Shown here one piece after another: positions 8,871-10,817 of a stretch of DNA of 64,000 nucleotides. A program made the position numbers and the translations under genes. Origin of the DNA: an uncultured Verrucomicrobiae bacterium (GTDB lineage Bacteria; Verrucomicrobiota; Verrucomicrobiia; Limisphaerales; UBA11358); NCBI GenBank assembly GCA_963845665.1, contig CAWJTA010000002.1, positions 611,388-675,387 of the forward strand, in the 5' to 3' direction. Below the pieces are notes generated by a model that did not search any database, had not been told where the DNA came from, and saw nothing but the letters and a program-made list of their open reading frames with translations. Position 1 is the first letter of the stretch. Every line of letters starts with the position of its first letter.

Positions 8871-9004
8871 GCGCCAATCCCCCTTCTGGCCCCGTCTTCC
8901 TTCCCCCCAGAGCGTATCAACACCAAAACGCAAAGCCAGGCAATCAAATCCTCATTCCATTCAGTTCCTACAAAGTTGTTCTATTGATTTTGGGGTAACC
9001 GGGA
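8871..9004 (+). repeat. Long-form intergenic element, copy 1 (ends in a core-motif variant)
   Basis: Starts GCGCCAATCCCCC..GGCCCCGTCT.., contains ..CCAAAACGCAAAGCCAGG.. and ends TTGTTCTATTGATTTTGGGGTAACCGGG. It aligns with the elements at 9757-9960 and 10189-10350. Confidence 0.7.
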
Positions 9005-9058
9005 GCATTTCTCCAAAAACGCCGTCAAACCGTATGAGAAAGCTGAATTTTGTCATAC

Positions 9059-9505
9059 GTTATGAAAAAATTGCACGTATTCATCGTCGGGGTCATTGTT
9101 GAACTGTGCATCAACATTGCTGCCTACGGAGGTGATTTGACTCTTTTGAGCGACGGTCACCCGACAAAGCTTGCACATTTGATAGCCGAGGCCGACCACG
9201 TCGTGTTTACAAACAGGTTGGACGCTTTTGTAGAAAAGAAGCACCGAGGTTTCAGCCTTGCCATTTCTGGTGATAAGGCACACGAGGTTGTAAGAGCCAT
9301 ATCTTCTGCCAAACCTTGTGCTCCTTGTGATTGTATCTACACCTGGAACATGAAGTTTTATCGAACGACCAATCTTCTGGCAGAAGTTCAGTTTGGAGGT
9401 CATTTCATATTCGAGGGGCAGGAGTATTATGACGAGAGCGGAGTGCTGGAGCGGCTGGAAAGCGAGTTGAATAGCGAGTCGTTGAAGCAGAGGGAAAAAA
9501 GATGA
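9059..9505 (+). CDS. Hypothetical secreted/membrane-anchored protein
   Basis: The ATG at 9059 gives MKKLHVFIVGVIVELCINIAAYG, a signal-like N-terminus. 148 aa. Confidence 0.5.
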   Translation, partial: VMKKLHVFIVGVIVELCINIAAYGGDLTLLSDGHPTKLAHLIAEADHVVFTNRLDAFVEKKHRGFSLAISGDKAHEVVRAISSAKPCAPCDCIYTWNMKFYRTTNLLAEVQFGGHFIFEGQEYYDESGVLERLESELNSESLKQREKR

Positions 9506-9756
9506 GGGCACTGCCTAACGCATCCCATGCCGATTTTCCCCCGAACACCAAAGCGAAAATACAAGAGCATCGGGTGGTGGTTGATATTGCATCCAGACCT
9601 CCGTCTATTCGTTCATTATTATTTCATATCAGAATGTATCGAAATACGAGTCAAGGTGCACCATATCGAAATACGAATTGATGTATCGTTGACACGTCCA
9701 ATTCCAAACCGACCGTACGTTACTTTCATGTTGTCCACTCGAATGGGCCACTTGTT

Positions 9757-9960
9757 GCGCCACGCCCCCTCCGGTGATTTTCCCGCCACCCATCCGAATC
9801 AGCCCACCCAAACCACAGGAACGCAAAGCCAGACCCCCAAAACTCCCACCCCCGTCAGTCCAGTTCGGGCTGTTCTACTTTGTACTATTTTCTGTTCCGG
9901 TTCGACGGTGATATTGACCCCATGATCTTGTTCCTTGATTTTGGGGCGGTTGGGGAGCCG
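9757..9960 (+). repeat. Long-form intergenic element, copy 2 (full length, ends in the core motif)
   Basis: Runs GCGCCACGCCCC...CGCAAAGCCAGACCCCCAAAAC...GTCAGTCCAGTTCGGGCTGTTCTACTTT...TTCTGTTCCGGTTCGACGGTGATATTGACCCCATGATCTTGTTCCTTGATTTTGGGGCGGTTGGGGAGCCG. Confidence 0.75.
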
Positions 9961-9972
9961 TTTTGGAGTGAT

Positions 9973-10176
9973 ATGGACGACATGAATCAGTATCGTCGAG
10001 CTACGATTGCGGCACATGAAACAGTTAAACGTCTTCAGCAAGAGGGACATTCCGCGGAGGCGGCGAAGCGCATCGTCGCTGAAATTATAAATGCGGAGGA
10101 GTTTGCTCTGATGAAAAGACGACACTCCTTTGATGAGACGCGATTTATCGAGCGGTTGGATAAACTCCCAGATTGA
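9973..10176 (+). CDS. Small hypothetical protein
   Basis: The internal ATG at 9973 gives MDDMNQYRRATIAAHETVKRLQQEGHSAEAAKRIVAEIINAEEF... (67 aa). The upstream part of ORF 9880..10176 is the repeat element. Confidence 0.4.
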   Translation: MDDMNQYRRATIAAHETVKRLQQEGHSAEAAKRIVAEIINAEEFALMKRRHSFDETRFIERLDKLPD

Positions 10177-10188
10177 GATGAGCGGATT

Positions 10189-10350
10189 GCGCCATTCCCC
10201 ATTGGCCCCGTCTCTACCTTCAAATTCGTCCCAACCTACCCCAAAACCTCAGACGCAACGCCAGACGAAAAACCCCCCCAATTTCCTTCAGTCCGGTTCG
10301 GTTGTTCTACTTTCTGTTCTGGTACGATGGTGTTTTGACCCATTTTCCGA
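10189..10350 (+). repeat. Long-form intergenic element, copy 3 (lacks the terminal core motif)
   Basis: Runs GCGCCATTCCCCATTGGCCCCGTCTCTACCTTC...CCCCAAAACCTCAGACGCAACGCCAGACG...TTCAGTCCGGTTCGGTTGTTCTACTTTCTGTTCTGGTACGATGGTGTTTTGACCCAT. It starts 13 nt after the 10176 stop. Confidence 0.7.
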
Positions 10351-10383
10351 ACGACATGGCCAATCTGGATGGAAAACGGATTC

Positions 10384-10626
10384 TCAAAGTCTTTTCTTCG
10401 CAAACGCCCGTCCGGATGAGGTCTTCAAATAACGTTCAAAGTCAATCGCACGAGCCTTATCTGTAAATGCAATGGCGGTTTTGATTCGCCACGGGCGGCG
10501 TTTCGCAGAATGTGGAACCTCGCCGGCATTGTGGGCCTTTAAACGTTCTCGCAGGTCTTTAGTGATGCCGACGTAAAAATCCCCGCCGCTAATACTTTCG
10601 AGGATGTAAACGTAGAAGAAATTCAT
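10384..10626 (-). CDS. GIY-YIG nuclease family protein
   Basis: 80 aa, MNFFYVYILESISGGDFYVGITKDLRERLKAHN..., the canonical GIY-(x10)-YIG/YVG N-terminal motif. Confidence 0.85.
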   Translation of the reverse strand: MNFFYVYILESISGGDFYVGITKDLRERLKAHNAGEVPHSAKRRPWRIKTAIAFTDKARAIDFERYLKTSSGRAFAKKRL

Positions 10627-10740
10627 ACTGGCATGCCGAGTCGAAGCTCGGAGCGTCGTTGGTATTCAACCGTCTAAGCCCGCCTTCGCTTCGCTATGGC
10701 GCGGCAGCCTTCGCTCTCCGCTAACGCTCCGAGCGAAGAC

Positions 10741-10817
10741 TGGTGCGCGCGACGGGAGTTGAACCCATAACCTTTGGCTCCGGAGGCCAACGCTCTATCC
10801 AGTTGAGCTACGCGCGC
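10741..10817 (-). tRNA. tRNA-Arg (anticodon CCG), CCA encoded
   Basis: The reverse strand reads GCGCGCGTAGCTCAACTGGATAGAGCGTTGGCCTCCGGAGCCAAAGGTTATGGGTTCAACTCCCGTCGCGCGCACCA. I checked the cloverleaf by hand: 7-bp acceptor stem, D stem GCTC/GAGC, anticodon stem TTGGC/GCCAA with loop CTCCGGA, and T stem ATGGG/CCCGT with loop TTCAACT. Confidence 0.93.

Follow-up and report, generated by a model that had tools for sequence, protein, structure and literature searches.

Candidate attachment-site arms of tRNA-Arg islands in a small-gene array of an uncultured Verrucomicrobiae bacterium

What are the non-coding repeats that separate small genes beside a tRNA-Arg(CCG) gene in an uncultured Verrucomicrobiae bacterium, and how did they come to stand there? 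The window analyzed here is a stretch of 64,000 nt (contig CAWJTA010000002.1, forward-strand positions 611,388-675,387, or C2:611-675 kb) of a 6.66-Mb genome labeled G000, and the repeat, which we call the long-form (LF) element, occurs in it as three copies (Table 1). A first-pass annotation had likened this layout to a gene-cassette array beside a tRNA integration hot spot. We compared the locus with 61 genomes of the same genus (Verrucomicrobia subdivision 3), metagenome-assembled genomes (MAGs) from soil and peat. With a probability of roughly 60%, the elements are attachment-site (att) arm repeats of islands that integrate at tRNA-Arg, and the array in the window is a decayed scar of such islands.

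Comparison with the relatives resolved the LF element into a non-coding module of ~150-200 bp with three boxes, A-B-C. Box A begins TTGCGCCA; many relatives have it as a GC hairpin with a T-run behind it (TGCGCCA-N9-TGGCGCA-TTTACTT is one example), whereas the hairpin of the window copies has decayed and keeps 4 bp of its stem. Box B, rich in C and A, carries AACGCAAAGCCAGA. Box C opens with TTCAG.., continues with two or three tandem TGTTCTGGTTN repeats and closes with GACGGTGNTTTGACCC. Past box C the element takes one of two alternative ends: D1 (CATCAATTTTGTTCCTTGATTTTGGGGCGGTTGGGGAGCAGTTTTGAGGCGAT), which runs into a gene start, or D2 (TTTTCCGACGACATGRC..GGAAA), which faces the tRNA. Two sequence models were used for searching, R1 for A-B-C, built on the relatives, and R2 for the 45-nt core, D1.

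Alignment of the three window copies with MAFFT revealed 63% mean column identity and four blocks that are invariant in all of them (TTGCGCCA, ACGCAA.GCCAG, TTCAGT and GTTCTA), so the homology first described for these intergenic sequences holds. The sequence TTGCGCCANNCCCC has exactly three matches in the window (8869, 9755 and 10187) where 0.56 would be expected, and three or more were seen in 4 of 100 shuffles. A profile made from the three copies matched them with E-values of 1e-29 to 1e-40 and gave one weak extra match in the genome, at C3:415014-415139. Some copies contain an open frame, but the indels between copies are 1-2 nt long and break it, and we therefore regard the element as non-coding. 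The element boundaries first proposed were essentially right, the real start lying ~2 nt earlier (TTGCGCC), with weak shared sequence reaching back to the preceding stops. The reported spacings are likewise correct: copy 1 begins 41 nt past the stop at 8829, copy 3 begins 13 nt past the stop at 10176, and a GIY-YIG gene lies 114 nt downstream of tRNA-Arg(CCG), both on the minus strand (Pfam, ARAGORN). The 45-nt core that was said to end copies 1 and 2 is intact behind copy 2, where it reaches the next start codon; behind copy 1 there is just a degenerate piece. The stop codon of the 67-aa open reading frame (ORF) between copies 2 and 3 falls within the lead-in sequence of copy 3. Short repeats of the GGATTTTTGGATTGATGGATT type are very common in intergenic DNA throughout the genome (for example at C1:1439003 and C2:546254), GAATTTTGGATTGA has 148 genomic matches with up to two mismatches, and a related motif (..AATTTTGGATTGAGCC-ATG) makes up the lead-in to box A as well as the junctions at which co-directional small genes meet.

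The position of the element is conserved in the genus. R1 found matches in 12 of the 61 genomes, at 1-8 copies each, and in 11 of these 12 a single A-B-C-D2 copy is convergent with tRNA-Arg(CCG) and lies 78-103 nt from its 3' end, a conserved placement relative to a target tRNA of the kind by which islands are recognized. Copy 3 has this same tRNA-adjacent form, and its nearest relatives are the tRNA-adjacent copies of G074 (77% identity) and G061 (76%). The gap to the tRNA widens to ~400 nt in G000 and at G061:C143 (L057 9900-10155), where the same small GIY-YIG gene intervenes; in G015:C66 (L009 1759-2000) this gene is directly beside the tRNA, and in G017 a C-terminal relic of it sits beside an older element copy (L056 ~6190-6350). 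Because the gene stands directly beside the tRNA, or between it and the element, in three species and left a relic in a fourth genome, it travels together with the att region rather than being a one-off insertion.

Intact islands in the relatives supplied the context for this placement. They run from a complete tRNA-Arg through the element, the cargo and a tyrosine integrase to a repeated tRNA 3' half. G072 has the complete tRNA, LF, a type I restriction-modification system with other cargo, the integrase, a B/C block and the tRNA half, and carries no LF outside the island, which argues that LF is island-borne. The order in G017 is LF(D2), a tRNA-Arg 3' half, a C block (TTGTTCTGGTTCCTGTTCTGGTTCGAGGGTGAGTTC) that overlaps the integrase start, a 370-aa tyrosine integrase and an island of ~20 kb, followed by LF, an oppositely oriented RCC1-repeat gene, a second LF(D2) and, last, the complete tRNA-Arg. 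G056 retains a 1.3-kb relic consisting of the tRNA half, the C block, a truncated integrase, LF and the complete tRNA. In all three genomes the tRNA 3' half is a direct repeat that bounds the island, with LF inside that boundary beside the complete tRNA; in G015 and G061 a tRNA-Arg 3' half lies beside LF, with a further island that carries a DUF3631 (P4-type) gene. Together, these arrangements point to the tRNA-Arg locus as an integration hot spot in this genus, as had been suspected from the window, and so place such a hot spot in a little-studied group of soil and peat Verrucomicrobia. One contig, DAOPPX010000003.1 (L076, L078; 33.6-50.1 kb), carries two island integrases ~10 kb apart whose identities to the G017 enzyme are 89% and 86%; each has a tRNA-Arg fragment and a C block upstream, and the pair looks like tandem islands.

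The integrases themselves, which match PF00589, Int_N and SAM-like domains, connect the element to recombination. Eight loci of this integrase family were found among species representatives. All eight have a C block with tandem TGTTCTGG repeats that reaches exactly to the integrase start and, ~110 nt upstream, a fragment of tRNA-Arg. In a circularized island, the att core (the tRNA half) would thus have the same tandem-repeat block on both sides, roughly 100 nt away. This second TGTTCTGG block next to the integrase start, together with the island layout, is why we read LF as an att-site arm, and the tandem TGTTCTGG repeats of box C are predicted to be arm-type sites, either for the integrase or for a directionality factor. 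If so, sequence comparison defines an integrase family together with the two arms of the att site that it uses, the conspicuous 200-bp repeat between arrayed small accessory genes is accounted for, and the element could be used in these MAGs to recognize the ends of islands as well as islands that have decayed.

The attP sites of lambda- and P4-type elements carry arm-type binding sites, and their integrases autoregulate at their own promoter. The islands described here are similar in having tandem direct repeats ~100 nt on either side of the core, one set of which lies over the 5' end of the integrase gene, and in an integrase whose SAM-like domain is preceded by ~80 N-terminal residues, a possible binding region for arm sites. 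They differ in that the repeats also stand before cargo genes, which is atypical for arm sites.

A likely history of the window array can be put together from these features. A tyrosine integrase would have inserted islands into the 3' half of tRNA-Arg(CCG), with LF as the tRNA-proximal island end and a second B/C block, across the att core, adjoining the integrase start codon. Copy 3 would be the canonical arm that faces the tRNA, separated from it, as at G061:C143, by the GIY-YIG gene. Copies 1 and 2 would be older, paralogous arms that were shifted inward by later insertions or by LF-by-LF recombination, and in which the D2 tRNA-side end was replaced by D1, a clade-specific leader- or promoter-like sequence that runs into the next small ORF. 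The role left to such arms would probably be in expression, with D1 acting as a putative promoter and leader and box A possibly as a terminator. The homology, the conserved placement at the tRNA, the island layout in relatives and the lack of a hairpin structure are shown; the order of events, serial insertion and then decay in G000, is inferred, as are protein binding to box C and promoter activity of D1. The same process has been described for the tycheposons of Prochlorococcus, in which new integrations displace earlier elements inward and degenerate remnants stay behind (bioRxiv 10.1101/2020.12.28.424599).

The islands share several features with P4-like islands and tycheposons: firstly, insertion into a tRNA 3' half, so that a complete tRNA bounds the island on one side and a partial repeat on the other; secondly, an integrase next to the att site; thirdly, a cargo that includes defense and niche genes. 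By contrast, the repeated scar in the window is a ~200-bp non-coding arm without a tRNA fragment, the units between the repeats are single small genes, the arm is joined in one clade to a propagated leader- or promoter-like core, and the window genome has no integrase. The kind of system is already known, namely tRNA-targeting integrase islands and their remnants; what is unusual is a 200-bp arm scar fused to a propagated leader.

Several observations weigh against an island origin of the array. As the first-pass annotation had stated, there is no integrase in it: a whole-genome search with PF00589 returned seven matches, none of them within 400 kb of the array or in C2:611-675 kb, the nearest being at C2:140 kb and C2:2159 kb. 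G000 lacks the island integrase family as well: the best tblastn match, elsewhere in the genome, has 30% identity. A genome-wide search found no repeat of the tRNA-Arg 3' half, its sole match, at C2:492 kb, being a different tRNA whose acceptor stem is similar, and the island reading of the window array consequently rests on the relatives. Neither an integrase relic nor a leftover tRNA half lies in the intervals between copies 1, 2 and 3. Finally, there are LF copies joined to D1 at loci with no tRNA nearby (G015:C115, G015:C172 and G061:C229), so that part of the family behaves like a propagated promoter region. It is because the cognate integrase and the repeated tRNA half are missing from G000 that we describe the array as a decayed insertion scar and not as an intact island. 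An attempt to delimit the island by synteny found an antiporter gene with a best identity of 45% in the genus and trigger-factor orthologs on other contigs, with no element within 12 kb of them; synteny is therefore not conserved. G000 has four DUF3631 (P4-type primase-like) paralogs, 62-73% identical to the island gene beside the tRNA-Arg half in G015 and G061, one of which is 1.4 kb from a D1 copy at C2:15324-15354.

Could the array instead have arisen by a simple segmental duplication within the window? The three copies are ~60-70% identical to one another, and each is closer to copies of G074, G015 or G061 (62-77% identity) than to its neighbors, so that they fall into different clades of the tree; the nearest relatives of copy 2, for example, are in G074 (71%) and G015 (70%), not copies 1 or 3. 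The genes that flank them are unrelated. These data exclude a simple local duplication, an outcome that the first-pass annotation had named as one that would undermine its proposal, and indicate that the window copies are old and not recent local duplicates.

The best-surviving rival explanation, which we nevertheless consider unlikely, is that LF plus D1 is a purely regulatory module that was propagated in front of unrelated accessory genes and combines a terminator hairpin and a promoter or leader with tandem operator repeats to which one common transcription factor would bind; the position at tRNA-Arg and at the integrase start would then reflect only the common regulation of island genes. 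Evidence for it comes from D1. Across the whole genome, all 12 D1 copies precede a same-strand ORF of at least 50 aa whose start lies -3 to +62 nt from the D1 3' end, and this overturns the earlier description of the ORFs as promoterless-looking, the 45-nt core being itself a leader- or promoter-like element. The copies are 45-60 nt long, are 61-100% identical to a reference copy and stand ahead of unrelated ORFs. D1 was found only in G000 (12 copies), G015 (10), G061 (8), G074 (4) and G075 (1); G061, G015 and G074 are the closest relatives of G000, with trigger-factor identities of 84-88%. Nine of the 12 copies in G000 are in the window, within 41 kb (7.5-48.4 kb). Six further copies lie on the minus strand at 13-26 kb, on the far side of the tRNA, and head accessory genes that point toward it, among them a Trp-halogenase-like gene and a macro-domain gene; a macro-domain gene at G015:C115 also has D1. 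The entire 7.5-26 kb stretch looks like flexible island DNA.

Also in keeping with a regulatory module are the hairpin and T-run of box A in relatives and the nested series D1, C+D1, B+C+D1 and A+B+C+D1 that precedes unrelated genes in G000, G015 and G061. Copies that appear to consist of D1 only often retain decayed remnants of box C, which indicates that C-D1 is a single ancestral unit that was propagated in front of unrelated accessory genes. Homologous upstream regions of non-paralogous genes are a described phenomenon, known as putative mobile promoters (Matus-Garcia, Nijveen, van Passel; PMC3575422). D1 and C+D1 resemble them in forming at least 50 nt of similar sequence upstream of non-paralogous genes, both within and between related genomes; they differ in having an identifiable origin, an island att and regulatory region, and in being concentrated in a few accessory loci.

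A regulatory module does not, however, explain the commonest form of the element, A-B-C-D2, which in 11 genomes has no downstream gene and faces the 3' end of tRNA-Arg, nor the copy in G017 that is followed by a convergent gene. It also does not explain why the direct tRNA repeats enclose LF where the island ends, or why the B/C block stands on both sides of the att core. No sigma-70-type promoter was predicted in the copies, D1 included. Inspection of D1 by eye for other promoter types gave an ECF-type candidate (GGAAC..CGTC) on the opposite strand with a spacing of ~22 nt, which is too long, and a weak match to the GG-N10-GC of sigma-54-type promoters. With no sigma-70 consensus in D1, its putative promoter activity is proposed from position only. 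D1 is a candidate for a portable promoter or leader; hardly any promoters of this phylum have been characterized.

Less probable still is an active, non-integron platform for gene capture, in which circles of the form D1-gene-A-B-C would insert at LF beside tRNA-Arg and so build arrays of expressed single genes, with the crossover in the B-C block or at ..TTTGACCCAT, made by the island integrase in trans or by RecA. The arrays of other genomes speak for this idea, and both they and the mosaic of copies described below also count as evidence for the att-arm and scar reading. The unit-wise variation among relatives that had been proposed as a check does exist: G061, G074, G017 and a metagenome contig (Ga0206887_10008, L090) have element-gene-element-tRNA-Arg arrays in one orientation at the same tRNA, and their genes are unrelated. 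The array at G061:C5 reads LF-D1, YdjM-like gene, LF-D1, DUF3592 gene, LF-D2, tRNA half; that of G074 reads C-D1, 106-aa gene, LF-D2, tRNA; and that of the metagenome contig reads LF-D1, LF-D1, five small genes, LF-D2, tRNA. At C2:810-811 kb in G000, a single gene lies between a D1-type and a D2-like copy. Two copies 2.5 kb apart on the metagenome contig (10994-11223 and 13691-13846) share a B-C block of ~105 nt at 96% identity and differ in box A and at their 3' ends. This pair is a recombination or gene-conversion mosaic, and exchange between LF copies therefore does take place. Homology among the element variants stops at a common point, ..TTTGACCCAT, ahead of D1 or D2.

Set against capture are, firstly, the lack of a recombinase in or near the window and of the island integrase family in G000; secondly, element boundaries that are not base-precise, since preceding genes cut the elements on the left at different points within A, B or C; thirdly, the age of the window copies, given their divergence from each other; and fourthly, the C remnants of D1-only copies, which make C-D1 an ancestral unit and not a junction. 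The 148-aa gene between copies 1 and 2 was examined as a possible co-mobile partner of the element. The genus has homologs of it, at 28-56% identity, in 11 further genomes, and neither LF nor D1 lies near any of them, which rules out this candidate. Continuing cassette capture at the array is thus unlikely; were capture at LF active after all, cassettes would be acquired here by a new route that does not involve integrons.

The window does resemble integron arrays and CALINs (attC clusters without an integrase) in that small ORFs in the same orientation are each followed by a homologous non-coding element, with no integrase nearby. The first-pass annotation recommended folding the elements as single strands, as is done for attC. 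Single-stranded DNA of the elements folds no better than shuffled sequences (z-scores of +0.85 for the plus strand of copy 2 and +0.93 for the minus strand of copy 3), and this test was therefore negative: no attC-like hairpin is present, there is no attC-like imperfect palindrome and there are no R''/R' core sites. The whole-genome PF00589 search found no IntI-type recombinase with attI and Pc at the array end, the recombinase related to these elements being a tRNA-island integrase. Nor are the units promoterless cassettes with base-precise boundaries, as D1 precedes the ORFs and the elements are cut variably. The early suspicion that the repeat is linked to recombination survives in altered form, through its place at the island end next to tRNA-Arg and the repetition of part of it at the integrase start in relatives; an integron-type cassette mechanism is not supported.

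Two further readings, a gene for a structured non-coding RNA and a miniature transposable element (MITE/REP-like), are very improbable, even though the element is a conserved non-coding sequence of 150-200 nt with several copies per genome in several species: no Rfam family matched at the gathering threshold or at E-values up to 5, the consensus folds on either strand to only about -7 kcal/mol with a single invariant 6-bp TCTGGC/GCCAGA helix and no useful covariation, the fold z-scores are positive, terminal inverted repeats and target duplications are lacking, and the copies are not dispersed but confined, in fixed orientation, to the neighborhood of tRNA-Arg and a few accessory loci.

Table 1. 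Features of the array and related loci in G000. Positions are those of the window unless a contig (C1, C2) is given; R1 and R2 are the sequence models of A-B-C and D1.
Feature	Position	Strand	Remarks
D1 core variant	7563..7617	+	R2 39.2 bits, E 8e-11; ATG 7618 immediately after
Three ORFs (141/104/147 aa), close-packed operon; unit upstream of copy 1	7618..8829	+	without Pfam or PHROG family
LF copy 1: boxes A, B, truncated C	8869..8991	+	R1 58.6 bits, model positions 1-131
Degenerate core remnant behind copy 1	8976-9004	+	visible by eye only; below the R2 detection limit
148-aa ORF, signal-peptide-like N-terminus	9059..9505	+	no Pfam or PHROG match; real gene family by homologs
LF copy 2: boxes A, B, C with tandem GTTCTAC/GTTCCGG repeats and GACGGTGATATTGACCC	9755..9920	+	R1 95.1 bits
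D1 core joined to copy 2, reaching into ATG 9973	9917..9974	+	R2 54.1 bits
67-aa ORF between copies 2 and 3	9973..10176	+	weak PHROG match only, E 0.0024
LF copy 3: canonical tRNA-adjacent A-B-C form	10187..10341	+	R1 93.4 bits
D2 tRNA-side end of copy 3, TTTTCCGAACGACATGG..GGAAAACGGATTCTC	to ~10380	+	continuation of copy 3
Small stand-alone GIY-YIG gene between copy 3 and tRNA	10384..10626	-	Pfam PF01541, E 5.6e-15
tRNA-Arg(CCG), predicted integration target; 3' end toward array	10741..10817	-	ARAGORN; Rfam 68.9 bits
Further D1 copies	14491-14545, 16740-16790, 19260-19315, 21692-21740, 26069-26126, others weaker	-	ahead of minus-strand accessory genes
DUF3631 paralogs	C2:16727-17959, C2:1769833-1771173, C2:1886526-1887878, C1:1804183-1805505		

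Three smaller features of these loci are recorded here. A recurrent, bidirectional terminator-like hairpin, AAAAGCGACAC-N2-GTGTCGCTTTT, occurs at accessory loci of G015 and G074 (L013 8340-8375, L009 650-680 and L030 ~2290-2320). The minus strand at 9053-9511 holds a 152-aa antisense ORF that is a near-exact mirror of the 148-aa gene; its sequence does not look protein-like, and it is probably spurious. The 250-nt, AT-richer spacer from the 148-aa ORF to copy 2 contains, at 9637-9690, two exact direct repeats of TATCGAAATACGA separated by 27 nt, plus a partial third; these may represent an operator or the remains of island DNA that was deleted.

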